The position numbers were made by a program, and so were the translations under genes. Below, in pieces: positions 2,942 through 62,305 of a stretch of DNA of 64,000 nucleotides (the stretch's first letter is position 1; each line of letters opens with the position of its first letter). The notes beneath the pieces are model-generated. The model was not told the DNA's origin. It worked only from the letters and a program-made list of their open reading frames with translations, and made no database searches. The DNA comes from Flaccisagitta enflata (lineage: Eukaryota), in contig OZ231126.1 of the NCBI GenBank assembly GCA_965153355.1, forward strand, positions 35,960,001 through 36,024,000. Direction: 5' to 3'.

Positions 2942-4659
2942 TGTCAATGAAAGAACCCACGTTGTTCAATTTCCTTCCCTTCACCCTCGAAATCGACCAT
3001 AAACGTCATAAGAAGGGGTTCAAGAAAAGCTGCAAAAGGCCTCTCCGTTTGAAAATGGGCCGCGTTTCTCATAAAACATGACTGCAATAAAAAAAAAAGC
3101 ACATGTCACGATTTTAAGTGTAGCACCAGACACACAGAGAGAAAGAGGGAGAAAAAAAAGAGGCGAAGAATGACAGAAAAAGTGCAATGAACTTTACATA
3201 TCAGAGGGACTTTTTTATTTGAAAGAATGATATGAATGTTTTACTCGATGAATGTAATACTTCTTCTACTTGCATTTGTGAAAGAAGCTTTTTGATTCTT
3301 TTTTTTTTCGCTTTTTACTCGCTGGCTATGCGACTCTTTTAAAGGGTTTGTTCCTGGGTAGGTAGGTAGGTATGTTGGTAACGCGATATTTTTGATGGCG
3401 AGAAATTAACTAATATAGTGATTTCTGCCCCTGCCTAGCCACATTACAGCCCCTGCCTTGCCCCCAAACTGCTCCTGCCCACCCACAACACTGCCCCTGC
3501 CCACCCGCCAGCGACTGTATATTGGGCGTGTATCCTTTTTTTTCAAATCTTTCTTAATGCCTTAAATATAAAACAAGTTTTTTTTTTTATCGGCGAAAGT
3601 TGAAAGTGTCTTTTCTCCATTTATACTTTTGCGTTCTGAGAGGCCCAAAGGGGATTGTATCAATGCCGAGCTTCGATTTCCCACGTGGCACCAGGAAAGA
3701 AAACGACCGTAGGTGAGTGTGGGGGAAACAAGCTGTGGGCTTAACCACAGTGGATGAGTTGTGGGGGGGGGCACTGACAGGCAAGCTCGATCGGGCATGA
3801 AACAACAGAGTAGCGAAGAAAACTCTCATAACACGTTTGTCGATCACTTGATTCAGTGTAGGATTTCATCGTTGCCAAAAACAGTCAAGAAACGCAATTT
3901 TTGCACCGGTGTAAAGGACATACCGACCGATGGACGGATAGACTCTCCTTTGGAGATGCGTTTCTTTCGGACGCATCTAAAAACGGGACACGCTTTGGGC
4001 TTAACCACAGTGGGTCACCGGGGTATGGGGAAAACTGGGGTATAGTTGGAATGAAAGGACCGCGGGATGGGTAAAACTGGGATTCATTTGGAATGGAAGT
4101 TTTTATTCTTGTGCTACGTCACTCATACAGTCACTTTTTGGTAAGTTAGTTAATTGCAGAGTTTGTTTCATGGTCATTATTCAATGTACATATACATTTA
4201 TTCATCTTCCATAATTTTAATCATCTGTTTTCGGTAGTTATAAAAAAAGGATAATCTAAGTTATGTAAAAAGATCAGGTCAATTTAATATTCTGAAGTTT
4301 TAGAGGGCATCAATTTAACTATTTCACCAGTTGACAAGATTATGTATTGATGAAGTACACGCAACTATTAGATGTTGGCCTTGTCTAGTTTCTTTTCCTT
4401 TCCATTTCCCACTGGCGTGCATTTCTGCGCGTGATGGGACCGAGTCTTATCGGACGCACGCCACGCATTTAATATTACATCGTACAAGTATTAGAGCAGG
4501 GCCGGTCTCTGAGACCACCTGAATATGATGGGGATGTGTCTTCTGAAGGCCGGAAAACTTTCGGCAAAAAAATTCCGCTCAGGAAAATTCGTCCAACCTC
4601 TACTGCTCTACAGAGGAGAATGTCATATCTTACACTCACTTTTTATCAAAACTTGCCGA

Positions 4660-22614: not shown

Positions 22615-23814
22615 CTATCTAGGCGGAAAAAATCTTTCGGTACGTTTACATGCATATCTCAGGTTAGAATCAACAAATCATCAAAAAATTGGTGAAAAAA
22701 TTAAAGTTCTTCAAATTTGCAAGAGATTGGCGCAAACCCTATCCCTCTAGCTCTAAGCGTTCAAAAGCTATTCATTTTTGATTGAATCACTTCAATATCA
22801 CTTTTTCTATTTTTACACAATCTTCTGATGATATCATTTGACTTTTTTTTTGATTACTTCTAAACGCCTTGAGCTGGACAGATGCAATTTGCGTTACATG
22901 CTTGCAAATTCGATGGGCTTCATTTAAGTCACCGACTTTTCTATGATTTGATGATTCTTTTGAATGCTGTGAGTCTAACAGGTCTCACATAATTAGGCGG
23001 AAAACTAAAATGATCAATATATATAGTAAAAATGCCCTCAGCATGATGAAATTAGACATGGAGATAGCTTAGACTCAGTATTTTGACGAAGCAAGGCGAT
23101 GTGGGGGAGTTTCCTGCATGTAGGGCGAGATGGAGGGTGTTTTACCGAAAGTGAGGTGTCAGATTATTGCTGATTTTTACGGAAAAATGTAGCAAAGTGG
23201 AAAACGTTTACCATTCATCATTTTAAGAAGATAGAATGCAAAAAAAAACGTCATTTATCGTGTAATGCAGTTGTTGGATGCAGGAGAGTCAGTTATGCAG
23301 GAAGAAAGCCGTCTATTTTGACCACAGTTGAGGAATTGAAGGTGAAGTTGAGCATAAACAACAAGAAGAGTGTGTCAATCCCAAATTTGGTTACCTTTCA
23401 TTCATCGGCATATTTACGTCCATTAGGGGATAGCCTTTTACTTTTTTGGGCATTTTTTGCATTTTGTTGATAAAATAAACATAAATTGGTGATATATATC
23501 TCTTTGATGGATTTTATTTCCATGTTTAACACTCTTTTCAACGAGTTTTCATCCTTTTCCGCCTAATTTTGTGAGACCTGTTAAATGTAGCGAAAGAATA
23601 GACAAAAAAAAAGATCACGAGAAAGATCTGGAAGGCCTTAACTCCTCAGTAACTCGAACAGCTCTACAAATCGCCTCCGAAACAAATGGCTGCTATGAAT
23701 CAGTCAAAGGGAGCTCACACTTATTATTGATGGATTTGTAATTGATTTGCATTCATTTTTACGCCAATGAATACGTTTTTGTTACAGGACGAAAAATTTT
23801 TTCCGCCTAGATAG
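22615..23814. mobile_element. MITE with TA TSD, nested in the 22433-26313 element
   Basis: TIR ctatctaggcggaaaaaat / attttttccgcctagatag, flanked by TA. Confidence 0.82.
22978..23581 (+). mobile_element. 604-bp MITE, copy 1 (TA TSD)
   Basis: TIR acaggtctcaca(t/a)aattaggcggaaaa at both ends with TA flanks; near-identical inverted copy at 25189-25794. Confidence 0.92.
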
Positions 23815-25188
23815 TAGCAAAAGAGTTGCCCTATTTCATAGGAAAAACAAGGTTGAAATAGCATCAGTGCCAGGCCTTTTTAGTCGCGGACACGCGACTC
23901 TACACCTTGCCGTGTCGGTCAGTCCGTCCGTCCGAAATATTTTTGAATTGCGATCGGTTTTAGCATCACTGCTCCTGCCCAACCGTCTGCGACTGTATTG
24001 CCATGTATCCGGCCTTGTTTTAGAGCGAGCCCGCGAGCCCGTGGCTCTCTATTTTGCTGTCGGGCTCTCTGGTTTCACTGGCTCTGAGCCCGGCTGGCTC
24101 TCTCAAAATTGAAATCATGTTCTGTACTCAAATGGATTGGAAGATTCTCGTAAGATCATAAGAAGAAAACCCAATTCACAAGTTAAGAGTGACTAAAATG
24201 AATTTCTACCATAGTCACCTTGTCAAATGTAAATTGATCAACAAGTAAAGCATCTCATTTTTTCATGTAAATGCGTCTTATATTGATGGTAGAAAAAGTT
24301 GGCTTGTGATAATTTTAGCTTTCTTTAAAACTGATTTATTTCTTTTATGAGAGAGCTGAAAAATTACCATTGAAAGATGACAGTGTCATGAGGCTCACAC
24401 ATTTTAACAAAAAGGGGCAAAATGTTCAGTTTTTCAAGTCGTTTGCACGCTACTCACAATTCTGTTCATCTGTTTGTCTCTCGTCTGTTAGTCCATTCAT
24501 TGATAAGTCCATCTGTTGCTCTATTGGTCGGTGACACTGTTTTTTTGGCATTTACAAGTGATTTTAATGTCGCTTCTCCTGCCCAAATTTCTAACAAATT
24601 TCCTCACTACCCTCCTGCCCACAAACAATTCAAGTAGCCTTCCATTCAGCATTGTTTTGAGTTGCGGACACGCAACTCAAGAAGCTTTATCCGTCCGTCG
24701 GTTGGTCCGTTGGTGAGCACGAGTTGAAAAGTGGGAAAACGCGCATTTCTGCCCCTGCCCACCCATCCGCAACTGATGGCCGTGTATCCGGCCTTGTTTT
24801 GCCGGGCTCGCTGTTTTGCTGTCGGGCTCTGTAAATTTGTGAGGAGAGAGTCCGGTTGGCTCTGCCAAAAAAATCACTAAAAAAGGCCTGATCAGTGCTT
24901 CTTTTTTTCAATGAGTCTGGTCCAAGAGCGTTGGTTGTAAGAAATTAATGAAGATTTGATGATAACGCGGAAAGATTTGACTTATTTGATGCAATTATGA
25001 CTGATTTTGTCTCCAAAACACTGCAAAAACCTTAAAATTTGGGAATTCTTTTAGAAATTTGTCTGAAAATGGTTCAAAATTGAGAACAGTGAGCACATTC
25101 TTCACTTCAACCATAATGTACATTAAATTCTTGCAAATTTGAGACCTATCCCAGCATTTTAGCTCAATTTGTTCAGAAATAACAACTA

Positions 25189-25794
25189 ACAGGTCTCACA
25201 AAATTAGGCGGAAAAGGATGAAAACTCGTTGAAAAGAGTGTTAAACATGGAAATAAAATCCATCAAAGAGATATATATCACCAATTTATGTTTATTTTAT
25301 CAACAAAATGCAAAAAATGCCCAAAAAAGTAAAAGGCTATCCCCTAATGGACGTAAATATGCCGATGAATGAAAGGTAACCAAATTTGGGATTGACACAC
25401 TCTTCTTGTTGTTTATGCTCAACTTCACCTTCAATTCCTCAACTGTGGTCAAAATAGACGGCTTTCTTCCTGCATAACTGACTCTCCTGCATCCAACAAC
25501 TGCATTACACGATAAATGACGTTTTTTTTTTTGCATTCTATCTTCTTAAAATGACGAATGGTAAACGTTTTCCACTTTGCTACATTTTTCCGTAAAAATC
25601 AGCAATAATCTGACACCTCACTTTCGGTAAAACACCCTCCATCTCGGCCTACATGCAGGAAACTCCCCCACATCGCCTTGCTTCGTCAAAATACTGAGTC
25701 TAAGCTATCTCCATGTCTAATTTCATCATGCTGAGGGCATTTTTACTATATATATTGATCATTTTAGTTTTCCGCCTAATTATGTGAGACCTGT
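25189..25794 (-). mobile_element. 606-bp MITE, copy 2 (TA TSD), inverted relative to copy 1
   Basis: Reverse complement of 22978-23581; I see only two substitutions and a homopolymer length difference. Confidence 0.92.
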
Positions 25795-26416
25795 TATATG
25801 AACTAAGATATGCAACAAGTCGTTGGGGAAAAAATGGCTCATTGTGAAACACACTATATTTATTCATTTTAAGAAAGAGGCTTAAAATTTGTAGTCAGGG
25901 GGACATTCCCATTCAGAACTTTTGATTACGCCGCCTCCTCCTTGTCTAATTTTCTTTCAAAACATTCTCTGTTATTGAATAAGAAGAAAGCGATTATCTT
26001 AAACATCAACAAGTGATGTTAAATAAAAGAAGTAAGTCATTATCTTTCAGGGCAATTCATCTAAAATCTTTTTCACTCTTAACTTAATAGAAAGAAATAA
26101 GAAAAATACAAAACAAAGAAAATTTTAAACTTCATGAAATATGCAGGGTAAGACCCTTTTTTAGCCTCTCCCAGCGGCACGAGTTTTTATTCATGTAACT
26201 TGTAGCAAAACTTAATCAAATTATCTATCAGGGGAAATAGAAAAAATTGATTTCCATGAATAATTTTGGAGTAATTCAGGTTCTTTTGGCGACAGTCCGA
26301 TCTAAAAGCGGTGTACCTCGGTGCTTAAAGTCCTCAGACAACTTGCACTCAAGATAGCATACTTTTAAAACTGTGCGGTCATCCATTAGAACTTAACAGA
26401 TGTAGATGGTTGTCAC

Positions 26417-42117: not shown

Positions 42118-43841
42118 CACACATCTCTGGATACCCCCCCAAAGAGAATCGAAAATACCATTTTTTCTGACTGTGCTATTTGTCTTCAGGAACATGTGGG
42201 CTACTGAAAAAAACAAAAAACAAAAAAATTCTTCTGAAATTTTTTCATTTATTTCACTTTTTAGGTAAAAAAAGGGCATTTTTAGCACTTTTTAAGCAAA
42301 AAATTTTTCATGCAGCTTAAAAAATCCAAAAAAATACAGGAAATGTATGGCAATAGATAGAATATACACGTTTTTACCCTTCATAAACAGTTTTTCTAGG
42401 TATCATACAGATTAGAGCTAAAAAATGGCCTAAAAATGACGAAATATGATTTTTTTCAGTATTTTTCAGTCTAAATTTGTTTTTACAGCATTTTAACTCC
42501 TGAAAAATCCTAGAAAAGTGTAGTAGTAGTCTGAGCTTTACTACTTTTACCTTGAACAATCAGAAAATTTTGATTTTTTTTAGGTTTACAGTTAAAAAAT
42601 AGCTAAAAAATAGCAAAATATTGTGTTTTTAGGCATGTTTAAATAAATAATTATTCGTGCACTTTTATAAATAAAAAAAAAATACTGGAAATGTGTGGCA
42701 ATAGATAGAATATACATGTTTTTACCTTTCACAAAAAGTTTTTTTAGACATCTTAAAGATTAAAGTTTAAAAATGGCGTAAAAATACTGAAATATAGTTT
42801 TTTTCAGCATTTTTAAGTCTCAAATTTTTTAATACAGCATTTCAACTCCCAAAAATCCTAGAAATATGTAGTAGTAGTCTGAATTTAAATACTTTTACCC
42901 TGAACAATCAATAATTTTTTTAAGTTCATAGTTTAAAAATGGCTTTTAAAGAGCAAAATATTGTTTTTTTAAGCATTTTCAAGAAAAGATTGTTTATGCG
43001 GTGTTATAAATTTTTGGAAATTCATGAACAATCTTTTAGTTTAAGAATATCAATTTTTTGTTTTTTTAAGTTAAACTCAGACTACTACTACACATTTCTA
43101 GGATTTTTGGGAGTTGAAATGCTGTATTAAAAAATTTGAGACTTAAAAATGCTGAAAAAAAACATATTTTAGTATTTTTACGCTATTTTTAAACTTTAAT
43201 CTTTAAGATGTCTAAAAAAACTTTTTGTGAAAGGTAAAAACATGTATATTCTATCTATTGCCACACATTTCCAGTATTTTTTTTTTATTTATAAAAGTGC
43301 ATAAATAATTATTTGCTTTAAGATGCTTAAAAACACAATATTTTGCTATTTTTTAGCTATTTTTTAACTCTAAACCTAAAAAAATCAAAATTTACTGATT
43401 GTTCAGGGTAAAAGTAGTTAAGCTCAGACTACTACTACACTTTTCCAGGACTTTTCGGGAGTTAAAATGCTGTAAAAACAAATTTAGACTGAAAACTAAG
43501 GAAAAAAACCATATTTCGTCTTTTTTTGGCCTTTTTTAAGCTCTAATCTGTATGATACCTAAAAAAACTGTTTAAGAAGGGTAAAAACGTGTATATTCTA
43601 TCTATTGCCATACATTTCCAGTAATTTTTCGGATTTTCTAAGCTGCATGAATAATTTTATGCTTAAAAAATGCTAAAACTGCCCTTTTTTTACCTAAAAA
43701 GTGAAATAAATGAAAAAATTTCAGAAGAATTTTTTTGTTTTTTGTTTTTTTCAGTAGCCCACATGTTCCTGAAGACAAAATTGCACAGTCAGAAAAAATG
43801 GTATTTTCGATTCTCTTTGGGGGGGTATCCAGAGATGTGTG
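42118..43841. mobile_element. 1.7-kb foldback element with CAC...GTG termini and 4-bp TSD (Chapaev/CMC-like)
   Basis: ttga|cacacatctctggatacccccccaaag ... ctttgggggggtatccagagatgtgtg|ttga. Arms of ~770 bp are inverted, each with ~350-bp internal subrepeats; no ORF. Confidence 0.85.
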
Positions 43842-48239: not shown

Positions 48240-49221
48240 AGCAGACCAGCTGTCATCAGACCATTTTAGAGGATGAATCTTAAGAATATAAAATAAAATC
48301 TGTATGTTCTAGCAGATCAGCATCAGACCAGTTTAGCTTTTTTTGAATCAAAGCTAGATCCAGAAATAAAATCATCAGACCACCATCAGACCACTAATAA
48401 CCTCATTGTGGTTCAATCTCAAAACAAAATCATCAGACCACCATCAGGCCAGCCCTATATCCCTCTAGAAGAGGTTCAACCTCCAAATAAAATCATCAGA
48501 CCACCATCAGACCAGCCTTATATCCCTCTGGGAGAGGTTCAACCTCAAAATAAAATCATCAGACCACCATCAGACCAGGCAGTTATGATTGTATAAAGGT
48601 TCCAAGCTCAAAAATAAATCATCAGACCACCATCAGACCAGCCACTATATCCCTCTAGAACAGGTTCAACCTCAAATAAAAATCGTAGACCACGCCCGTC
48701 AGATAGCCTTATATCCCTCTATAAGAGATTCAACCTAAAAAAAAATCATCAGACCACCATCAGACCAGCAGTTATCGTTATATAGAGGTTCAACCTCAAA
48801 AAATAGAATCATCAGACCACCATCAGACCAGCCATATCCTCACAGGAGAGTTCTAACCTCAAAAAATAAAATCATCAGACACCCATCCAGACAGCCCTAT
48901 ATCCCTCTGAAAGTTCAACCTCAAAATAAAATCATCAGACCAGCATCAGAATAGCCTTATATCCCTCTAGGAAAGGTTCCACCTGAAAATCGAATCATCA
49001 GACCACCGTCAGATAAGGCAGTTATTATTGTATAAGAGGTTTAACCCCAAAATAAAATCATCAGACCACCATCAGACCAGCCTTATATCCTCACAAAGGG
49101 AAGTTCCACCTCAAAAAATAAATCATCAGACCACCATCAGACCAGAAAGTTATCATTATATAAGAGGTTCAACACTCAAAATAAAATCATCAGACCACCC
49201 CATCAGACCGGCCTTATATCC
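48240..49221. repeat. ~62-bp minisatellite running into the assembly gap
   Basis: Repeated aaataaaatcatcagaccaccatcagaccag..tatatccctct..aggttcaacctc. Confidence 0.92.
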
Positions 49222-49231
49222 NNNNNNNNNN
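49222..49231. other. Assembly gap (10 N)
   Basis: Run of N between the minisatellite and the 5' LTR. Confidence 1.
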
Positions 49232-50082
49232 AGGTGCAGCTTTTCCTCTTTTTCTTATTATTCAATATAAATTGTCTTTTGTTTCTCGCCATTTCTTATA
49301 ATGAAGGCTAGATGAGTAACCATATGGTTGCGCTTGTATTTTTATGCCATTTGTTTTTATTACGTAAACAAACATACGTAACTCGTCTTCGTGTCATTCA
49401 ATTTTGGATTGATTGTTTTTATTTATTTACGGCATTGCTTCCTAAAGTGATTGATTGATTTTTGTGATTGATTGAATGTGCCCTTGGAATTCACTAATTT
49501 CAATAATCTCTCATCTTTTTATTGCAGATAGACTTGTGAACGGACAATTTACGTTAGTTTGACATCGACAGACTGTGGGTTGAAACCAGCAGTGGGCCTA
49601 AAAGTAGTTTTGAAACGCGTCTTGGTTTTAATGTGTTGTTTTTATCTTCATTCATTCCGGTCTGTTATTCTTGTTTTTGCGTTTTTGCATTTTTATCGCC
49701 GGATTTTAGTATGGTTTTATCGTTTGCCCGATCAGCTAACTATGGGGATGATATGGATGAATTTAATGGGATGGGCCGGGGCAGGGGCAGGTATTATCAA
49801 AATAATATGGGCTCTGAAGAAGATGAACATGTTGTTATGTGCTATTTCTGTCGCTGACCCATTGTCTGTCTCGATTTCATGTTATCTTTTGCGTTTGCTG
49901 ATCACCATTAACGCCCACTTTCCCTTTATTTTATCCCCTCTCTTCAGTTGTTGAAATTTTTATGGAATAAACGAGACGATCGCCTTCCTGTTTTCCAATC
50001 GGCTAACTTTCTTTCACCACAAGTCATCAGTCAGATAGGCGCTCATAGACAGTGCCAGTTGAAACTCGTGAAGTAATTTACA
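49232..50082 (+). repeat. 5' LTR (5'-truncated by gap)
   Basis: Aligns by eye to ~61450-62305 and ends ...gtaatttaCA, which is inverted-complementary to the TGTAA start of the 3' LTR. Confidence 0.9.
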
Positions 50083-50149
50083 TGTTTCAACAATTTAAAA
50101 AAACGACTGGAAGCTCTTTTCATCTTCGACCTCCGCAGGGATTTGGACA

Positions 50150-52750
50150 ATGGCGCGCGTAGCACGACGACACCGTCTCGACTGCTTCACGTCATCTCGT
50201 GTATCTCACTTCGGTTTGAATCAGTGTCCGAGGTCGGATCGTTTGCGCGCAATGAGGAACGACATCACGGCGGAGATGGAAGGATGCCGGCGCCTTTTCG
50301 ACGCCGTTGCTTGCGCCGGAAAGGCGAATGATTCGGCGACGCCGCATGTAGTCAGATGGCGCTACGACACGGCCTTCGGGATATGGTCTACGACTTCATA
50401 TCATACGCAAGGCAAATGGCGCTCGACTCAATGCCAGTCGACCCTCTTCGATTCGCAGCATCCACTCTGCGTAGATCCCGGCGCGAATGGAACTCCATGC
50501 GTTTCTTCGATCGTGAGAACTATCCAGAGGGTTTTCCTTCCAACGCCGACATCGTGAACGCAATGCACAACGATCGGGAATCGTAAAAGACCCGTCAATG
50601 AATTCTCATGAGACAGTCTCCCAACTGACACTCATGCCGCCCGTGACAATATTACTGGCGCTCCAACACCCAGGATGCGGACGTCTTCGCCAAACCCCGA
50701 CGGATCCGAGTATCTGCCACTTCCAATCCCTCGACATGATGCGCAATCTCCAACTGGCGGCCAATTTTTAGATCTGCCGCCGATTCAAAGAGGAGATGCC
50801 GTCAATCAGTGGGTTTCAGATTTGGTATCGGAAATCGAACCTGCGCGTGCGTCTCCGATGGAGCAGGCCGACGACATGCTCTTGCGGATCTCGGCAGCCT
50901 TCGATGCTCTGCAGAAGTGCCGGGATCATCAACGGACTGGCGCGCAGGAAGGGGCGGGCGACGCTTCGTCAGCAGGAGTGCGGAGAGAGACAGATGGGGT
51001 AGGCAGCTGGAGGAAGAAGTACGACAAGAGCTGTACGGCTGATAAATGATTTGCAGCGCTTGGCGCAGCGGAGGGCAGCGACAGCAACGGGTGGCAACAA
51101 CGGCAGCATCAATTGCAGATGCAGCGGCAACAACTCCAACAGCAGCGATCAACTCCTGCGCGACCGCAAGAGCAGCGGCAAGCGACAGCTCGCGACAGCG
51201 GCAAGGCTGTTGCATGGCGGCAGTTGCAACAACTCCAACAATTTCGTCAACAAGACCAGCAACAGCGTCAGATCCTGCGGCGGGCGCCCACAGCCTGTGG
51301 TTCAAGCAGCAGCGGCAACACGGCGACAGCAGCAACAACAACAGCAACAACAACCGCGCCTGCCAACAGCATCGGCGGTAGCATGGCCACAAGAACAACA
51401 TAACAACAGCGGCAAAATAATGCAGAAGTATGCAACAGCAACTGCAGCAACAACAGCCTAGCCCCGCGATCCCAGCGGTGGTAGTGGATCCTCCAGCGCT
51501 AAATAACCATCCTGTCGAAAGCATGAATGTCAGTGAAGAAACAGAAGAAGCGAGACAGCAACGCCTTGCAGAACAACGACTGCGCATGATGGCTGAAGGT
51601 GAAGGTGGTGGTGCAGCAGCAGCTCCAAAGGCGCCGATCGCGGTGCCATTGGGATTCCAACAGCGAAGCTCATCACAAGAAGACAAAGAGTTATACGACA
51701 GAATGTGCGACTTTAAATAGCAGCAACAGCGAGATGAAGATAAGAAGGGCAGGAGTATTCAACAATGCCAGGCAGAGATGCAACGAAAGCACTGGAATAG
51801 CCTGAACGACGGCGGCATTGGTGGGGCTTTAGAGCAGCGAGATGTGAAGCTTAGACAACTGTCTGAGCTGGACAAACAGCAGCCGCAGCATCCGTCAAAA
51901 GACCGTCGATCTATCTTCTTGCAGCAACATCATGTGCAGCCAGTGGAAACGTCCGTCAAGCAGCCGATGCAGCAGCAGCAACAGGTGGAGCAGCAGCAGC
52001 AGCAAGGACAGCGACAGCATCAACTGCAGCAGCAGAATGAGCAGCAACAGCATCCTGACCAGCAGCAGCGGCTCCAGCATCAACAGTGGCAGCAGCAACG
52101 GTTTCAACTTAGCAGCAACAGCATCAGGATCAGCATCACCAAACCCCAGCAGCAGCGATTCTTTCTACGCACGGAAGTGATCTTGAAGCGATTGGTTCTG
52201 CTAGAAGGGCAACCCGTCAAGAGGAAAGGTCTTCAACACAGCCGGAGACGGAGGTGATGCAGCGGAGCGTGCGCAGGAGGCAGAGGCAGGAGGCCGCTGA
52301 CGCGAAGTTGGCACAGCAGCTGCAGGATAAGGAGAGAAGAAAAGTCGCTCCAAAGAAGACAATGAGTGGATTGCAGCCGAAGGCGCCAAAAGTAGCGCAA
52401 GCGCCTCTGGCAATGCCTCAAGCGGAAGTCATCCAGCAGAATCAACGTTTGCGGCCAAGTGGATAGTTTGAGATGCAGATTCAGCGAGGCTTTGACCTTG
52501 CCGCAGCGAGAGAAGAAGAGAAACAACGCAAAGAACAACAAAGCGGCAGTGCTTCCTTAAGATTTTGATGCTCCCCGATTCCATCAAGATGATCGTCAAC
52601 AACAAATGAATCAGCAGGAAGAAGTTGGGTGGAGTGTGAAAACGACCAAAAAGAGATCTCCGGTCAGGGTCAGGGGTCAATACGCGTTCATCCAACAAGC
52701 CCCAGCGTATCATCAAAGTGGGTTCTTAGAGAAGGGCGGCGTACAACGAT
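50150..52750 (+). pseudogene. Long low-complexity, Gln/Ala-rich coding-like region upstream of the Gag core (probable Gag N-terminal extension)
   Basis: GC-rich, with overlapping ORF fragments and CAG/CAA-rich runs between the 5' LTR and the Gag core; no recognised domain. Confidence 0.5.
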
Positions 52751-52753
52751 CAT

Positions 52754-53700
52754 ATGCGAGCAAGGGAGGTCGGCCTCAAAGCGTTGGAGAGAGCAAGACC
52801 TGAGAAGCCTCTGCATGAGCTTTCATCCACCGATTTCATGATGTGGAAGAGGAAGTTCAAAGATGCTGAAAAGCATGAAGGCTTGACGCAAATGGACATT
52901 TTATTGGAATTGCCTAAGTGGTTTGCTGGTCGGGCAAAAGAGATCGCCGAAACTGCGGCGATTGGTGCAACTGAAGCGACAGCAAGAAAAGAGATTGTGA
53001 CGCCTTCGCAAAAATGGGCGTCGTCTTCGCGCTGAGCGCTGCAACATTGCGCGTGTTCAGCACTGAATCGTCGCGGAGGCGAAGAGTCAGTCGGCCGACC
53101 ATGCAAGGCATTTCAATTTGTCTGCAAGGTTGCAAAAGGCAAAGAAGATTGCGAAGACCTGTGAAGTACTAGCAATGCTATCGTGACGAGTTGCTGCAAG
53201 AGGAATCCTCAGCAAGAGGGTTTATCTCATCTTACAGATAAATTTTACGGGAAGAAGCAACATGAAACTGGCCCAAAAGGACAATCATTTTCATTCGACA
53301 ACTTGGTCAACATGATTGAAACATGGGCGGTGATTCAGCGCAATAAAGGTGCAAGCTGCAAAACAGCATCAGTGGCAGCAGTTGCAACGACAGAAAAAGA
53401 GGCGCCATCATCATATGAGGATGCTTTGACCAATGGCAAGCAAAAGGTGCAGTCGACGGACCGCTGCAACGTCTGCAGTGGAATGCATCAAACAGAAGAG
53501 TGTCATCAGTTGTTAGAGTTGGAAGTGGACGCGAGAGTTCAGAAGATCATGTCTCGTCGTCTCTGCTTCCACTGCCTCGCAAGGACACAGCGCCAAAGGA
53601 TGCGGGTGGATAACTTGCCAGATCTGCCAAACGCACAACGATTCTCCACGGCGCACCTACAAAGAAGAAGAAAAAGAAGAGAAGAAAGAGAATAAGCAGG
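52754..53700 (+). pseudogene. gag: BEL/Pao Gag core with three Cys/His knuckles (frameshifted)
   Basis: CNVCSGMHQTEEC, then CFHCLA/GHSAKGC and CQICQ..H..TILHG read across frameshifts; a triple knuckle is typical of BEL/Pao Gag. Confidence 0.85.
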
Positions 53701-53869
53701 GGAAAATAAAGTACCGCTGGCTCCCTTCAACAAGTCAGAGGATGCGGCTGCAGTAGCACCAACAGCTCCGTCGACGGCGGAGGCAGCCAATCCTACGGAA
53801 GTGATCTCTTCTAACGTCACGGCATGACTGGCGGCGTGGCAGCGTCATGATCGTCTTCATTCGACGGCG

Positions 53870-54340
53870 TTGTCGTCCGATTGTTCAGTGACTATCATAA
53901 ACAATTCTTCGGGTGCGCAGAGGGCGATATACGCCTTGATCGACTCAGGCGCTGATCGCGACGTGATCAGTACCAATGTCATTCGCAGTCTTCTGATTCC
54001 AACAAAAACAGTGCAAATGGCGGTGATTACTGTGGGAAATCGTGTTGTTGAGGATCGTTTCATCCATCATTTACCATGCAATCGGTCGACGAGGAATATG
54101 TCGTCGACGTCAACGACGCATTGGTGGGTGATTTGTTAACGAGTGAACGCGACATTCCTCCTTTTCTCCGCGACCTATCCGACCAACCTCACATCGGAGA
54201 CATAAAATTTCCAGAAGCAGAAGGCGGTGTGATGATGATCATCGGAGCGGCGCATGCGGATGCCGCCGTCGCTCAGGAAATCCGCCGAGGGCCTTCAGGA
54301 TCTTTGACTTGCTTCAGATGTTTATTCGGTTGGACTGTAT
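53870..54340 (+). pseudogene. pol: Aspartic protease domain of pol
   Basis: YALIDSGADRDVIS active-site motif, followed by MIIGA and CLFGWTVCG in the next frame. Confidence 0.85.
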
Positions 54341-54599
54341 GTGGAAAAACGGGGAAGAGGGGGCGAGATTTTGCATCAATCAACGCTGTCGCAACGGATG
54401 ATCGCGTCCTCAACGACAGCATCGATCGCATCCTCGATAATCGCGTCCTCAACAGCAACATTGACCGCATTTTCTACCATGACTTTGCATCATCAATCGT
54501 CTCGCAAGAGGAGATGGGCGATTCCCTAGAGAATATCAGAGCGTGCAAAACGTTAGAGGAAAAGATATATTTTTGCCCAATTGTGAAAAAATATTTTGC

Positions 54600-55700
54600 T
54601 CCCGTCACATGGAAATTTCATCGCGAAAAAATCATGGAAATTCTGAGAAGAGTGAAGTCACGACCTACTGCGATGAAGCGGCTCGGCAACCAACGTTTCC
54701 GCTTCAAGCGTGATCCAGCCTTCAAAGAAAGAGTCTTCCGTGAGATCGAGAAATTTTACGAGACGGGAGTGGCGATTGAGATTGACAGCGTCGACGATGA
54801 CGACAGCATTGAGAAGCCGCGCTGGTACTTACCACTTCACATTGTGGAGTTGCGCGGAAAAACGCGCGTATGCCACGATGCGCGTGCGGCGACCGACGGG
54901 ATCTCACTCAATGATTTGCTCGTCGGAGGCCCAAACTTGATGAATAGCTTGATGGACATCCTCATGCGTTTTCGTCAGTGGAAAATCGCCTTATGTGTGA
55001 TATAAAGGCGTTTTTCCACAACGCGTCCATCCTGACGACGCTGATTTGTTCAGATTCTTTAGTTTAAAGACCGTACTCTACGAAGCAATTTTGAATCTGT
55101 TCTTATCACACGTCTTGGCAGCCAATCCAGCTCATTCGTCACATCTTTCACCGTCAGGAAGCATGCTGAAGTAATCCGGCCCAAGTATCCCTACAACGTC
55201 TACGATCTTATTCGCTACGGCTTCTACGTCGACGACGGAAGTGGGGGTGGGGATTCGGTCGACGAAGCACTGCAGTTGAAGGTGGATTCAGTGGCGGCGA
55301 TGGCTGAAGGCGGGATGGATCTTGTGAAGTGGAAAAGCAACGCGCGGCAATTGATGGATGGAGATCCGAACGTGCCAATTCCCATCTCAGATAAGCAAGA
55401 TGATGCTCCGACGAAGGTGTTGGGCGTCTCATGGCTTCCGGCGGAAGACGTCTTCATCTTCATCTGCGACGAGGAATTCAAAACTCTTAGAGCAAAAACA
55501 CCTCGTCAATTGGTCTCCATGCAAGCCAAACTTTATGATCCATTGGGATTTTGGAGTCCAAGCGCATACATCGGCAGACGACATCTTCAACTCTGTCGTC
55601 CACAGGAAGTGGGATGGGATTCGCCCTTGGAAGAGAGCGTCGAGGAATCCTTCTTCCGCTACACTTCATCTTGGCCTCTTCTACAACAATACCGACTGAC
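54600..55700 (+). pseudogene. pol: Reverse transcriptase domain of pol (frameshifted)
   Basis: WYLPLH, KTRVCHDA, SLNDLLVGGPNL, LMRFR, IKAFFH, FYVDD (YVDD at 55225-55236), KVLGVSW, YDPLG: Pao-type RT motifs. Confidence 0.92.
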
Positions 55701-55739
55701 GCTGGTGGAATGGCGGCGTCGACAACAGCGACATTGCAG

Positions 55740-56250
55740 AAGTCACAATCGAGTTCTTTTGCGATGCGGCTCCAAAAGGCGGATATGGAGCAGTTGCATA
55801 TCGACGTCAAGTCAATCGAGATGGAGATGTTCACATTTCATTCCTTGCCTCCAAATCTCACGTCATCCCACTCAATCCAAAACGTGCTTCTCATCATAAC
55901 AGCGTTCCACGAGTCGAGATTGTATCCGCAGAAAAAGCAGTGCAGCTCAAACGCTTTGTCGGAAGGACCATCGACTTGGACAATCTTGTCGTCAGATTTT
56001 GGTCTGATTCTGAATCTGCACTGAAGATGATTTACAATCCGGCAAAACCGAGGCCTGTATTCTTCGCCAATCGTCTCTCCAAGATCCATAGTGGGTCTGA
56101 TCCACAGCAGTGGCGCTGGGTTGACTCGTCAAACAACCCAGCTGACCACTGCAGCCGTGGCATCCAGGCCCATGAAGCCGAAAAATGGCGTCAATTCCAT
56201 CACGGTCCTGCATTTTTGCGTCTTCCCGAAGATCAATGGCCAAAGACGAA
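55740..56250 (+). pseudogene. pol: Pao-type RNase H domain
   Basis: FFCDAA..GYGAVAY, ASKSHVIP, VPRVEI, FWSDSESAL, VFFANRLSKI, WRWVDSSNNPADHCSRG. Confidence 0.9.
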
Positions 56251-56599
56251 CATCGCGACGTGCCCTATTTCTGCACAAGTCGCCGCTCTGTATGTGGCTG
56301 AAAGTGAAAAGAAACAAGTGGCTGACGCGATACTTCTTGCAGCAGCTTCTCGGGGAAAATGGATGCATAAGTTGCGGATCATCGGCATGGTTCTCATCGC
56401 AGTCAAAAGGTGGAGAGCGTATCCAAGGGCGAAGACACGAGCAGCAAAGGATCTCCTTCCTAAACCGGAAGTGACGCAAGACGTTTTGGAGGAGGCGCGC
56501 AAACAGCTCGTCAAGTCAATGCAGCGGCATCATTATTCCGACGTCTTCGAACAATTGGAGTTGGGAAAAGTCTTTAAACCAGAAAGCCGTCATGACTTT

Positions 56600-57852
56600 A
56601 TCATAAAAAACAAGGAGATGCGGAAGTTGAATCCCTTCGTCGACGACGACGGTATCCTTCGCGTCGGCAGCCGATTGGAAAATGCCGACATCGCACATGA
56701 CGCTAAATTTCCCTTCATCCTGCCGCCAAAAAAAGACGAGAATGTGAAATCATTAATTCGCCATCATCATCAAATGATTTTCACGCGGTGCAAAGCATAC
56801 ATTGTGCCAATTACGCCAATTTGTGTGGATTACAAAAGGTCTTCAGGCTGTCAAGAGCGTCGTCAACACGTGCTTCAGATGCCAGAAGAACTTCAAAAAG
56901 AACGCAAATCAGCAAATGGCCAATCTTCCATCAAATCGCGTCAATCCTGCGCCTGTTTTTGCAGAGACTGGATTGGACGTCATGGGGCATTTCCTCGTCA
57001 AAATGAACGGACGTGCTGATCACAAGGTGTGGATCGCAGTGTTCACCTGTTTCGTGTCACGTGCCGTCCATGTGGAATTGCTCTTCAACATGTCAGCCGA
57101 TGCGATGGTAAATGCAATCATCCGCTTTGCAGCAAGGCGCCCAGGAATCCGCCGTTTCACTGGACTGTGGAACGAATCTAGTTGGCGCCAACAATATCCT
57201 CAAGAAGGAAATGGAAGCTTGGAACCGCTCGTCAACTCCCGGATAGGCGGCGCGGCGCGGTGGGATTTCATCACGCCGAGAACACCCCACTATGGAGGGG
57301 TGTGGAGAGAATCGTCGGTCTCTTCAAGCGCCATCTTGCTTCCATTTCGACTGGCGCCATCCTCCACGTCGACGCCTTCAACACTGCTGTCGTCGAAGTT
57401 GAAGGAATTCTCAATCGCCGTCCTCTGACAGCGCTCAGCGATGATCCAAATGACTCTGAGGCCCTCACACCGAATCATATCCTCAATCCATCAACATCCG
57501 GTCACGCCCCTCTGGATCTGGTGCAACAAGGCGTCAACTCTGACGCTGACTCCATGAATTCAATGGACGCGCACAATCGCGTGTGGATGCGTTTTGGAAA
57601 TCATGGAGGGTCGAATACTTGTCGCTTCTTCATGCGCGAAGCAAATGGTCGAGATCCGAGAGAGACTTTGCGGTCGATGACATGGTCATCGTCATGGACG
57701 AAACGCTGCCTCGTCACAATTGGAGTTTAGGACGCGTCATGGGTGTCGAAGGATCATCAGCTCATGTCCGGAGGGCTCATGTTCGACGCCAAGATGGAAA
57801 GATCGTGACGAAAGACCGCACAAAGCTTGTGCGGCTGGAATTGGACTCATAA
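56600..57852 (+). pseudogene. pol: Integrase domain (HHCC + DDE), frameshifted
   Basis: LNPFVDDDGILRVGSRL, CFRC, TGLDVMG, RAVHVEL, DCGTNLVG, PHYGGVWERIVG, LNRRPL, LTPNHIL, WSLGRV; stop at 57850-57852. Confidence 0.92.
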
Positions 57853-58203
57853 AAAACGCTAAGTTTTGAGAGAGAGAGAAAAAGGCGCATGGGCCTGTCC
57901 ATTAGTAACTATAGATATGAGTGATTGAGACTCTGACTTGTTATATTTACAAAGAGTTGTTATTATTCATATTTGGTTCTGATTATCCATGCTTTCATCT
58001 TTCCTCTTGTCAATTATGTTGTCCATTTCCACTTACACATTAAAAACACTGATTCATTCGCTCTGTCTATATGTACATATTATTGTGCCAAAATCCGTTC
58101 TTACCATTATCAGTTCTCAAACGAACATTTCAAAGCTTCCGCTGACGACGTCATTCCATCTACGAAGTCAGTTCGCATCTTGAAGTCGCTCGTCGGAGTC
58201 AAG

Positions 58204-60326
58204 ATGTCCCGTCAGCAGCGTCTCGAGGCAGAAGCCGACGTGTCGACGTCGTACGGATCCTTGGATCTCCATCGGCTCTTCAGCGACGGCTCTACTCGAG
58301 AAGGATCTGCATCCACGACGTCGTTCGGGGCGGAGGAGGAGGCTGTCGCGCTTGCAGCCTTCAATGGCGACCTTCGTTCCGTCGTTGACGCAAAAATGGC
58401 GAATAAAAAGCGTCAACAAGATGATGCGTTGGAAAAACGTCAACAGCCATCCAACGCCGTTGATCCCGCGTCGCTTCCTCCATTGGTGGTCATCAAGGAT
58501 GGAGGTTCGAGGCGGATCTCGATCAATCGGTCGTCGACGGATTTATCCACCACTTCCGCGACGGCGTCATCATCATCGGATTTGCCCCCATCGCCTCGCC
58601 AATTTTGTCTTGATTTCGGTCGCCCAGCGTCTCGTCATCAAGCGTCTGCAGCTGCAAGTCAACGCAGCGGGGGCGAAGAGAGAGAGAGATCGGTCAATGA
58701 TGGAGCAAGAGTGGAGGAGGAGGGGATGGAGACAGAGGAGGAGGTGCCGGTGAATGGGGAGGTGGTGGAGAAAGACATTGACCCGGAAGTGGACACTGCG
58801 GGAAGAGAAACGCCAACGGATGCAGGCACGTTGGTGGTATCGTATCATCAGTCCGGACGTCGGAGTATCTCTCCTCTTCAAAGAGTTTGAAAAACTTTCA
58901 GTGTGCTGCAACAAACAAACTCTCATGCGCTCATCGGCTAATCAAACAGAGCTTGGCTCGGAGACTCTGGAGCGCAAAATCCAAAGCAACAAAAGAAGGA
59001 GGGAGCATGATAAGGAGGTTCGTCGCATGGTCCAGGCGACGAAGAGGAAGGATGCGACTCCGAAGCCTCCTGCTGCAGCTGCAACTTCATCTGCAGCAAC
59101 TTCCGTCGGCGCTTCCGCAACTCCACCGGCGGTATTTGTGCTCGACGCAGCCGCAGCTACATCAGCGGCAATTCATACCACAGCAGCAGGAAGTCGTCAA
59201 CCGCGCCCTGGATTGGTTCATCCCCCAAATCAGCAGCAACAGGGTCCTCGTGACGTCACTCCCTCACAACCATCGAAGAGATCAAGACGGGGAAAGACTC
59301 CACAAAAGCGCAATGTGCCGAGTCAACAAAAAGGGCCAGATTCCAAAAGCAAAGGCCCTCTTCAAGCGCCTCCAGGCGCGCCCACTGCAGCAGCAACGCC
59401 CAAAGGCCAAGGAGAAGCTTCAGGTGGTTCGTCGACGGCAACGTCAGCAGCAACCCAGAAGCTGAATCAGGCGCCTGGGGCAGCAGCAGCAAAAGGGAAG
59501 AAGACCAAGAGAGCTGGAAGAAAGCACAAAGCAGCAACCAAGGGAGGTTCTACTTGCGGTGCTTCGGCGTCCGCTGTTCAACCTCAAGTCTCTGGTCAGC
59601 AGACGAGAGCGTCTTCCTTTCACTCGCAGCCGTCAAAAGCAGCGGTAGGAAGCGAACTAGTTGGCGGTGCATTAGCATCTGTTAAAGCTGGTGTAGCGCC
59701 TCGTCAGCAAACAGAGTCTGCCCAAGGTTTGCAGCAAGTGCAAAATCCGCCTCCCCCGTCGGATCCAGCCTTTGATCCTGCGCATGGACACCACATCGCC
59801 GAGTCATTGCTACGGGAAGCCTCTTCACTTACCTCAAATGCTCCATTGGGTGTGGTGAAGAATTTAGCATCACGGCTTCCAAAAAACTTCTTCGCGTCGC
59901 TCAATCCGCGTCAACGAGTTGAAGCGGCTCGTCAAGTCTTAGACAGGAAATTGAGTCGCAATATCCAAAGGAGACGATGCTCGTCAGGCAGCAATGGCTG
60001 CGGACAATGAGGTGGTCAAAGGCAATAAGCGAGTCGTGGAACTGGAGAAGCAGCTTGAAAAGGAGAAGCAGGCCTGTGCGATGAAGGCTAAGAAGAAAGA
60101 GGAAGCTGTGGAACGCGCGAAGGCGGCTATGGCCGTGGACTTCACAACAGCGTCGGCCGTGCGTCCTAAATTTCGACTGGCGCCGAATTGCGATGCAGCA
60201 TCTCCACCTTCAGCATCTTCTCCTGCACAAAAAGACGGTCAGCAGATCCTGTCGCAAAAAGACGCTCCCAAGCCTGGAAATAAGAAAAATCGAACCAGGC
60301 CTTGGAAAAATCAGACCGCCAGTTAA
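58204..60326 (+). CDS. Extra post-integrase ORF(s) of unknown function inside the retrotransposon (frameshifted; low-complexity, basic, coiled-coil-like)
   Basis: ATG at 58204 (MSRQQRLEAEAD...). Three overlapping sense ORFs (to 58890, 58754-60010, 59994-60326) form a continuous GC-rich block set off from pol by an AT-rich spacer. No signal peptide or TM helix is visible. Confidence 0.6.
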
Positions 60327-61221
60327 ATACTGATTGGTGCCACGCCCAGTTGCTGTTCAACTTAACTACCAATTTGCAACATGGCGTGGAGAGCGCCACC
60401 ATTCGCTGAGGATCGTCTTCCACCATCACATCCTCATCCCATCGATGGACAGGCCGGCAATGTCGGGGGCGCAACCCGGGGCGTGGGAATGACGTCCGCC
60501 CCGGGGCCTGGCGAAAAACGCCCGCGTAAGTATCATGGTTTGGGAAGGGTTGAGGTTGAGTTTTTGTGGTAAATTGAATCTGTGTACGATAAGAACTTTA
60601 CTAATCAATCTGCCCCTATTCTTTCTCTTTCTTTGTCTTCCCCTTGGGGAGGATACATTCTCAGACGGCTGCACCACCTGCGCCTTTCGATGCGGTCGCC
60701 GTTGACGACTTCATTCATCGCCTTTCGCCCACGGATTGACGAGGTGTTGGAGCCCCGGAATGACCCGCTCGTCTCTGTAATGGAGAAGGCGCAGGTGATG
60801 TGGTCGTTCCATGATGCTTACTAATTTTTTTTGCTTTACAGATTCGTTTTTACATATAGTTAGTAATTTATTTAATTTTGTCTTGTTTTGTTTGGTTCCT
60901 TGGAACATGTACATTTTTGTTGTGTTTGTTTTAGACATGGTCTTTTTAGTCATTATTACGAATACTTTCGTATGACATGTTTTTAGTAGTATGCCCCTAC
61001 TTATTATTTTCCACTCTCAAGTCAAATCCCAGGCTTGGAGTGCTCCAAGGCCCGTTCCCCCTTCCCCCCCCCCTTTCCCCTTAACTTTTACAGAACGGGT
61101 GCCTCAACCTCCTCGTCGCCGCCTCGTTTCCATCCGCGTCATCGTTGATCGTTGAAAATTTGCTGGTGGTGGATCCTTTCCGGACGGGAATCATCATTCG
61201 TGCAGTCGTCGATCTGTTGAT

Positions 61222-61235
61222 AGTTAGGGTGGGGA
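61222..61235 (+). promoter_or_regulatory. Polypurine tract (plus-strand primer site)
   Basis: agttagggtgggga lies immediately 5' of the 3' LTR TGT. Confidence 0.7.
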
Positions 61236-62305
61236 TGTAAGAGGCGGTGGACGGGGGGGGAGGGGCGGGGGCTGTGTCTATGTAAATTTTTTTAAGGAAG
61301 GTAGTATCGGTTTTTTAGTAGGGTTTCCCCGACCGGAAACTAGATGTCGGATTTTTGAAATTCGTGAAATTCCAAAAATGGGGCAGAATGTTAGAAATGT
61401 ATGTCCGTCCGTCTATTAAGTATGTGTGCTTTTGTTTCTTTTGCGTGCTTTTGGCTTTTCCTCTTTTCTTATTATTCAATGCCGGTGTCTTTTGTTTCTC
61501 GCCATTTTTTATAATGAAGGCTAGATGGGTAACCATATGGTTGCGCCTTGTATTTTATGCCATTTGTTTTTATTACGTAAACAAACATACGTAACTCGTC
61601 TTCGTGTCATCCAATTTTGGATTGATTGTTTTTATTTATTTACGGCATTGCTTCCTAAAGTGATTGATTGATTTTTTTGTGATTGATTGAATGTGCCCTT
61701 GGAATTTGCTAATTTCAATAATCTCTCATCTTTTTATTGCAGATAAACTTATGAACGGACAATTTACGTTAGTTTGACATCGACAGACTGTGGGTTGAAA
61801 CCAACGAAAGTGGGCCTAAAAGTAAGTTTTTATAGACGCGTCTTGGTTTTAGTAACGTTGTTTTTATCTTGTATTCCGGTCTGTTATTCTTGTTTTTTGC
61901 GTTTTTTGCATTTTTATCGCCGGATTTTAGTATGGTTTTTATCGTTTGCCCGATCAGCTAACTATGGGGATGATATGGATGAATTTAATGGGATGGGCCG
62001 GGGCAGGGGCAGGTATTATCAAATGGCATGGGCTCTGAAGAAGATGAACATGTTGTTATGTGCTGTTTCTGTCCTTTATTGTGTCCTGTCTCGATTTCAT
62101 GTTATCTTTTGCGTTTGCTGATCACCATTAACGCCCACTTTCCCTTTTATTTTATCCCCTCTCTTCAGTTGTTGAAATTTTTATGGAATAAACGAGACGA
62201 TCGCCTTCCTATTTTCCAATCGGCCAACTTTCTTTCACCACAAGTCGTCAGTCAGATAGACGCTCATAGACAGTGCCAGTTGAAACTCGTGGGCGTAATT
62301 TTATA
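61236..62305 (+). repeat. 3' LTR (~1070 bp)
   Basis: Starts TGTAAG right after the polypurine tract. Similarity to the 5' LTR stops at gtaattttata (CA appears as TA). Confidence 0.88.

Follow-up and report, generated by a model that had tools for sequence, protein, structure and literature searches.

We analysed 64,000 nucleotides of Flaccisagitta enflata DNA (contig OZ231126.1, positions 35,960,001 to 36,024,000; hereafter the window), in which a BEL/Pao retrotransposon extends on the forward strand from about 49233, at an N gap, to 62304. The family measures about 13.1-13.4 kb and carries, between integrase and the 3' long terminal repeat (LTR), a third open reading frame (ORF), ORF3 (58204..60326), which encodes an accessory protein of ~710 aa. 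We are close to certain that this third gene is functional and accessory, that its product is soluble and not an Env, and that the BEL/Pao family carrying it is active.

Upstream of ORF3, pol (53828..57852) encodes protease (PR), reverse transcriptase (RT), RNase H (RH) and integrase (IN); it is broken in this copy and reaches 1,350 aa in copies L024, L025 and L037. The integrase stop (57850-57852) is followed by an AT-rich spacer (57853..58203), ORF3, a conserved 1-kb non-coding region with splice-like signals and a hairpin (60327..61373), the polypurine tract (61374..61388) and the 3' LTR (61389..62304; 916 bp, termini TG...TA). An earlier reading of the letters alone (the sequence-only reading) had pointed out the integrase stop, the AT-rich spacer, ATG 58204 and two peptides, all of which are present in the sequence. 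The polypurine tract that it placed near 61236 is an internal G-run. The true tract abuts the LTR start at 61389, a junction found in 40/40 3' ends and 16/19 5' ends, and consequently the post-integrase region, rightly noticed and put at ~3.4 kb, measures 3,536 bp.

Pfam matches in pol to PF05380 (Pao peptidase A17, E 1e-13), PF18701 (DUF5641, E 4e-20) and PF17921 (integrase zinc) bear out the proposed BEL/Pao identity. The PR-RT-RH-IN order with BEL/Pao-specific domains is present, and the YVDD motif was read in the natural copy L025.

Copies, selection and relatives of ORF3

A protein search of the genome with ORF3 finds at least 150 places at 94-100% identity, and gag-pol is collinear with ORF3 in 18/19 copies followed upstream; the region is therefore no one-off insertion, a possibility that the sequence-only reading had named. 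Among the 40 best DNA matches, 18 hold a single ATG-to-TAA ORF of 699-710 aa, 17 (the window copy included) are broken and 5 lack an anchor, the intact fraction being biased upward because copies were picked for likeness to the C-terminal part. The ~2.1 kb of continuous coding sequence claimed for this locus thus exists as one ORF in those 18 copies. In the window copy it does not, since the frame is left twice, near 58802-58809 and near 59945-59977.

Selection was assessed from variants shared by at least two of the 40 copies, with one natural copy as reference and a mutation-spectrum expectation. ORF3 holds 103 silent shared variants where 57.3 are expected, 81 replacing ones and no stops (omega 0.36; P=2.9e-12, which is approximate because shared variants are not independent events), and the remaining two sense frames give omega 1.35 and 2.35. 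With this purifying selection and the 18 open copies, neither a neutral region nor one without a long ORF describes the family. An uncorrected count gives omega 0.24 for ORF3 (35 copies), 0.10 for gag (16 copies) and 0.06 for pol (17 copies). In the antisense frame whose third codon positions coincide with those of ORF3 the signal is mirrored (omega 0.40); an antisense gene over ORF3 was rejected, as no antisense frame covering it reaches 150 codons in the window. The AT-rich spacer has 4-11 shared substitutions per 150 nt, compared with 7-23 in ORF3, and the codon test gives no coding signal there.

Constraint within ORF3 is concentrated in three blocks, joined by relaxed linkers (omega 0.43-1.31). 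Block A (58204..58473, aa 1-90) is acidic, has omega 0.07 and conserves the motifs DLxxL[FM] and F[NS]GDL. Block B (58789..59068, aa 196-290; omega 0.17) contains DPxV, QARWxY, FKxFxxLxxCC and SSAxQ, followed by a basic helix. Block C (59759..60188, aa 521-665) has omega 0.05-0.09. The first 200 residues are acidic and the remainder basic, with the middle of five full-length proteins carrying a net charge of +5 to +14 in 100-aa bins over aa 301-500. K-[KR]-x-[KR] motifs occur in 6/6 natural ORF3 proteins, and one TP-preceded motif aligns across the full-length relatives.

AlphaFold2 (AF2) models block C as two short helices plus a 78-residue helix, with pLDDT 90-97 over model residues 21-130. 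Block C is predicted to form an antiparallel homodimeric coiled coil: the homodimer model has an ipSAE of 0.46, versus 0.00 for the best control, and at least 89% of contacts agree between runs, with pLDDT at least 70. The mark used is reached by 21/30 solved pairs (7/16 pairs from animals) and by 0/23 single chains, and coiled coils may pass it from predictor memory. Block B yields helices without a confident fold and has invariant columns in the alignment; the N-terminal half is modelled at low confidence (pLDDT 53.6).

Searches for known families returned little. Pfam gave nothing below E 0.02 for ORF3 and 11 relatives and no enzyme signature for ORF3; the best PDB sequence matches reached E 0.11-0.18, the ESM Atlas held no usable match for two ORF3 blocks, and Foldseek against PDB and BFVD found nothing at E<=0.001. 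VIA-align returned generic coiled coils only (Z<=6.5), over the long helix of block C. In a hydropathy scan of 6/6 natural proteins, the best 19-residue Kyte-Doolittle means were 0.76-1.32, below the usual threshold of 1.6 for a membrane helix, so that no membrane segment is seen; the N-termini are hydrophilic, without a signal peptide, and Cys counts are 2-6. No viral glycoprotein match emerged from Pfam, PDB sequences, Foldseek PDB/BFVD or VIA-align, a negative that leaves room for membership of such a family. Lacking a transmembrane (TM) helix, a signal peptide and any Pfam, PDB or fold match, ORF3 is not an env gene, as the sequence-only reading had held, and it also matches no described BEL accessory ORF by family or fold.

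A scan of 1.84 billion protein representatives with ORF3 gave 21 matches; 19 were read, and the other two repeatedly matched one 35-residue stretch. The ten relatives looked up are all unnamed ENA proteins. Of three full-length ones, 673-692 aa long, P0023 shares 49%, P0044 42% and P0046 38% identity with P0002, and full-length relatives keep the Met start and the block order. Within this genome, an ORF3 of 84% identity is joined to pol at locus L095. L092 and L094, each found once, are relics of sister families, truncated at the 5' end and lacking pol; their ORF3 is 41-52% identical, both retain the 3' region, and L092 also retains the LTR. A JGI metagenome scan confirmed 0 relatives among 342 pattern matches, viral contigs lying outside the scan. 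The suggestion of an unusual lineage stands in so far as there is a group of related families (the 38-49% relatives); these relatives are not tied to pol directly. We note that one public protein, P0010, has integrase joined to block C, the product expected of an internal deletion.

A second BEL family (L063/L078), the nearest in RNase H-integrase (35%), also encodes an ORF of 218 aa in the interval from integrase to polypurine tract (L078, oriented 2371-3024), with an acidic start, a basic and coiled-coil end, and a T-rich acceptor-like AG directly before its ATG. It was rejected as an ORF3 homologue, with no detectable homology (probability 0.4%). In a related group, L061, L067, L073, L077 and L079 (oriented about 2345-3500), ~1 kb with short repeats and no convincing ORF separates integrase and LTR.

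Signals flanking ORF3 and other features of the element

A candidate internal core promoter (58168..58201) ends 2 nt before ATG 58204. It consists of an initiator (Inr) TCAGTT at 58168 and an AGTCA at 58197 that resembles a downstream promoter element (DPE) and lies at +28 to +32; letters and exact spacing fit the Inr-DPE consensus. The pattern matches once in the window; counting both strands, chance would give 1.78 matches in 64 kb. Its exact spacing recurs in 47/55 loci (some copies counted twice), and the upstream translation of the 42% relative P0047 retains the Inr-DPE letters and spacing. Instead of an internal promoter, the region could hold an acceptor for splicing or trans-splicing, at 58114 or 58171. 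An in-frame gag-ORF3 fusion via AG 58114 is disfavoured, the leader being 90, 91 or 92 nt long; these length differences of 1-2 nt between copies argue for a stand-alone ORF3 start. Contigs from three marine RNA libraries, which may contain DNA and from which rare forms are dropped, show no splice joints or start sites for an ORF3 RNA.

The kilobase that follows the ORF3 stop shares, in stretches of 100 nt, 62-89% identity with relic L092, compared with 43% at ORF3 fourfold sites, and has no codon signal. Conserved signals here are a donor at 60526, a TACTAA branch-like motif, an acceptor at 60664, a donor at 60795 and acceptors at 60841 and 61093; U3 adds an acceptor at 61742 and a donor at 61822. 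L092 preserves 4/6 acceptors and 5/12 donors of the sense strand, two of these signals lying in U3. A conserved hairpin lies near 61015-61042, and the surrounding 60930-61100 block folds better than 100/100 column shuffles, with 10/30 pairs breaking in some sequence. We rejected the idea that small exons, downstream of the stop or within U3, encode a fourth protein, given the missing codon signal and frame-breaking indels between families.

The element appears to prime its own reverse transcription without a tRNA, in the manner of Tf1. The 11 nt after the LTR (50085..50095) pair, with one G-U, with an 11-nt LTR site (49946..49956) whose first base is the A of an Inr-like TCAGTT, 138 nt ahead of the LTR end, and which would form the first 11 nt of the genomic RNA. 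The Tf1 self-primer is also 11 nt long. Such self-complementarity was reached by 0/200 shuffles; the predicted RNA 5'-end site is identical in 16/17 5' LTRs located, the primer site follows all 17, and none of the 17 is followed by a TGG tRNA primer site. The terminal helix is present in the predicted fold of the leader and alone is informative, whole-leader folding being unexceptional (z -0.84). In several families the LTR site resembles a splice acceptor, with pyrimidines plus AG; the pairing includes the AG and stops there, which favours a start site over an acceptor. Rfam and ARAGORN gave no matches.

The comparison was extended to 13 elements from nine further BEL families in the genome. 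Four show 9-13 bp pairings of differing sequence (0-3/200 shuffles), two have a weak 8-bp pairing (35-44/200 shuffles; one member of one has none) and three have no pairing, two of these with TGG sites. In an RNase H-integrase tree, the families whose pairing is strong or weak (12 rows) are separated from the remaining three families (4 rows; SH-aLRT 100); the tree is a quick one, midpoint-rooted and with long-branch warnings, and covers families of this genome only, with no reference BEL, Pao, Tas, Suzu, Sinbad/Sailor, Dan or Flow sequences. Since most families with the pairing have no ORF3, the self-priming signal and ORF3 are independent traits, and since membership rests on the pol domains, we treat the missing tRNA-Arg/tRNA-Gly site as a variant trait.

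The gag gene (50150..53827), broken in the window copy, ends in TGA. Gag has a long Gln-rich N-terminal portion and three CCHC-type zinc knuckles (read in L025), and a triple Cys-His box in Gag is a BEL/Pao hallmark (PMC554778). At ~1,275 aa in intact copies the protein is unusually long: ahead of the capsid region lie an N-terminal part without repeats and several hundred residues rich in Gln. The sequence TGA-CTG (53825..53830) stands between gag and protease in all 19 anchored of 23 loci as well as in the window, and gag and pol adjoin in the same reading frame in L022, L024, L025, L031, L034, L035 and L037. UGA-C is a leaky stop context, and we regard TGA-CTG as a candidate site of stop-codon readthrough.

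Fifteen copies were tried for target-site duplications, of which 11 could be anchored at both ends: nine have a 5-bp duplication, a tenth was recognised by eye and one has none. LTR pairs are 98.4-100% identical in 10/11 anchored copies, and the family is therefore young. The 3' LTR has a U3 of ~780 bp and an Inr-like A at 62167, followed by AATAAA; in other families of the genome LTRs end in TA or AA, and one family starts with TA.

The 5' LTR of the window copy (49234..50082) has lost its start in the N gap 49223-49232, its ends being placed from other copies. Its LTRs are 93% identical over 859 columns, and gag, pol and ORF3 are all broken, so that it ranks among the poorer copies; this may reflect decay or assembly error beside the gap. 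The 5' part (49234-52721) is 84-91% identical to other copies, and the 3' LTR is 99-100% identical to those of L021, L023 and L024; the divergent 5' part may be recombinant, or poorly polished beside the gap. A 63-nt tandem repeat array (48348-49220) directly precedes the gap that cuts the 5' LTR. Rearranged copies elsewhere (L027, L097) show a 5'-part inversion and an inverted head-to-head 3' duplication. Outside the element, long inverted repeats at 42179-43779 and 22976-25796 (arms 270-400 nt, 94-99% complementary) are probably foldback DNA transposons or resemble miniature inverted-repeat transposable elements (MITEs).

Proposed role of the ORF3 protein

We tentatively suggest, at somewhat less than even confidence, that the ORF3 protein regulates the element's own RNA in the nucleus, in the way of Rev of human immunodeficiency virus (HIV) or CERV of the C. 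elegans element Cer1. A subgenomic RNA from the internal Inr-DPE promoter would make the protein independently of the genomic RNA, and its basic motifs would carry it into the nucleus. Dimerised by the C-terminal coiled coil, it would bind a conserved element in the 3' kilobase through block B and the basic helix, while acidic N-terminal motifs would recruit host factors; full-length RNA would thereby leave the nucleus unspliced. The genomic RNA must keep its splice-site-rich 3' region and U3 because they are needed to rebuild the LTR, and retroviruses use Rev when genomic RNA must stay unspliced. A nuclear or nucleic-acid-binding role, which the sequence-only reading had thought possible, is an inference: motifs and the dimer model suggest nuclear entry and oligomerisation, and the conserved 3' region would be the candidate response element. 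In favour of the proposal we count the intact copies, the selection on three blocks, the Met start and block order shared with relatives, the lack of a hydrophobic segment, the K-[KR]-x-[KR] motifs, the dimer model, the Inr-DPE spacing, and the constrained 3' kilobase with its preserved splice signals. Cer1 CERV is itself the product of a 3' ORF formerly taken for env, has a leucine zipper and a nuclear localisation signal (NLS), and is required for genomic RNA export (PMC10309623). The larger picture of a complex belpaovirus with a retrovirus-like regulatory circuit so far undescribed in the family, whose nuclear protein of a new family is made from its own promoter and exports the unspliced genome via a 3' element, with self-priming as a deep-lineage trait and Pol made by UGA readthrough, we consider doubtful as a whole.

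Several observations weigh against an RNA-regulating role. Other BEL families in this genome replicate without an ORF3-like gene. No leucine-rich export motif is found in P0002 or P0030, and no likeness of ORF3 to any solved protein was found by sequence or fold. The excess of sense-strand splice signals is modest, since 1/3 antisense acceptors and 1/5 antisense donors are also kept in L092. The marine RNA contigs cover the element evenly, without a splice joint, and one contig spans the first predicted intron unspliced; a raw-read RNA run (X21) held no genuine element reads and is uninformative. Finally, the Inr-DPE pattern was noticed first and tested afterwards.

The features that point to a nuclear regulator can be read in other ways. 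A nuclear protein that trans-activates transcription or counters silencing, with the long U3 and the internal promoter as its targets, comparable to foamy-virus Tas/Bel1, would agree with the acidic N-terminus and its short hydrophobic motifs, the basic helix, the dimerising coiled coil, the NLS-like motifs, the candidate internal promoter and the 780-bp U3, and a nuclear location is known for accessory ORFs of plants, for example Grande GENE23 (PMC7264820). However, no DNA-binding family or fold was found, and the conserved 3' kilobase and its splice signals would go unexplained; we hold this reading to be rather unlikely. Much the same can be said, with slightly less confidence again, of a cytoplasmic particle scaffold or RNA chaperone that would concentrate Gag and genomic RNA or link particles to transport. 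The long basic low-complexity middle, the coiled-coil dimer and the very large Gln-rich Gag would suit such a role, but an NLS-like motif is conserved in all full-length relatives, and the middle is the least constrained part of ORF3 (omega 0.5-1.3).

A host-directed factor, for instance one that suppresses small-RNA silencing, would account for the high copy number, and the at least 150 copies, the LTR pairs 98.4-100% identical in 10/11 cases and a disordered protein with short conserved motifs are consistent with it. Yet the blocks are under purifying rather than diversifying selection, and no similarity to known suppressors was found, which makes this explanation improbable. Youth of the copies could also leave a captured host fragment open as a neutral passenger, and a host source gene could exist, as the genome matches listed are the best 150. 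The silent bias of the shared variants (P=2.9e-12) largely refutes this, as does the persistence of the protein blocks where fourfold sites have fallen to 43% identity, and we give it hardly any weight. We think just as little of a divergent envelope or small fusogen: ORF3 has the post-integrase position of the env genes of Tas and Atlas (PMC8742986; PMC9094657) and a long coiled coil, but the absence of a signal peptide and TM segment and the 2-6 Cys in 6/6 proteins, with no env family or fold match, refute it unless an unseen spliced exon adds membrane anchors.

Comparison with known systems

Belpaoviridae are described as elements of 4.2-10 kb with gag, pol, an optional env-like gene and tRNA-Arg/Gly priming (PMC8742986). 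The element shares their LTRs, three-knuckle gag, PR-RT-RH-IN order, Pao peptidase A17, DUF5641, polypurine tract and 5-bp target-site duplication. It differs in its length of ~13.1-13.4 kb, in a third gene that is not env-like, in the missing tRNA-Arg/Gly primer site, and in an in-frame stop between gag and pol where these are otherwise continuous or overlapping. Size alone is not unique, as BEL/Pao medians are 6.2-9.4 kb and maxima reach 22.8 kb (PMC3118150 supplement 9).

Third genes of BEL/Pao elements have been described as env-like, and their replication as poorly understood and tRNA-primed (PMC8742986). In literature searches and in passages of PMC3118150 (with supplement 9), PMC554778, PMC6238403, PMC8556966, PMC9094657 and bioRxiv 2025.03.14.642691, neither a non-env accessory ORF nor self-priming was found for BEL/Pao; most subscription papers, Repbase and GyDB lie outside this coverage, so that the negative counts as weak evidence for novelty. 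In this young, abundant element a non-env protein that is conserved, under selection and of no known family comes with a candidate promoter and target region, and it thus gives a case in which the independent rise of accessory-gene regulation outside retroviruses can be put to the test. For the self-priming signal, computer searches of all BEL/Pao collections would serve as a check; if it is general, the family definition would have to be amended.

Other LTR groups also include elements with non-env 3' ORFs (PMC5408684, PMC7264820, PMC10309623). Like ORF3, CERV lies at the env position, has no homology beyond its lineage, and has structured domains joined by flexible linkers and a predicted multimer; its zipper and NLS are paralleled in ORF3 by a predicted coiled coil and NLS-like motifs (PMC10309623). 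In contrast, it has a G-like domain and comes from a spliced mRNA sharing gag exons, whereas the leader lengths of ORF3 point to a stand-alone start. The ORFs of Grande (GENE23), Retand and RIRE2 are likewise family-wide, lie in the interval from pol to the 3' LTR and have no database match (PMC7264820). They have their own promoter and are nuclear, properties whose counterparts in ORF3 are a candidate and an inferred one, respectively; they are antisense and belong to plant elements, whereas ORF3 is sense and belongs to an animal BEL/Pao element. The non-env ORF3s of bdelloids are also post-pol genes of an invertebrate, among them a coiled-coil type, but those characterised are GDSL esterases or DEDDy nucleases of other LTR clades (PMC5408684). 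With the env of the nematode belpaoviruses Tas and Atlas, a phlebovirus-like class II fusion glycoprotein with the TM anchor that ORF3 lacks, it shares genome position only (PMC9094657).

For priming, the closest parallels are Tf1/sushi, Tj1, Tcn1 and TAR, in which the primer site pairs with the RNA 5' end of the element itself (PMC4600332, PMC6317226); the pairing found here has the geometry of Tf1/Tj1 self-priming (PMC4600332). Self-priming has been reported for the Ty3/gypsy and Ty1/copia groups (PMC4600332, PMC6317226), whereas the present element is BEL/Pao; with Tj1 it also shares a stop between gag and pol.

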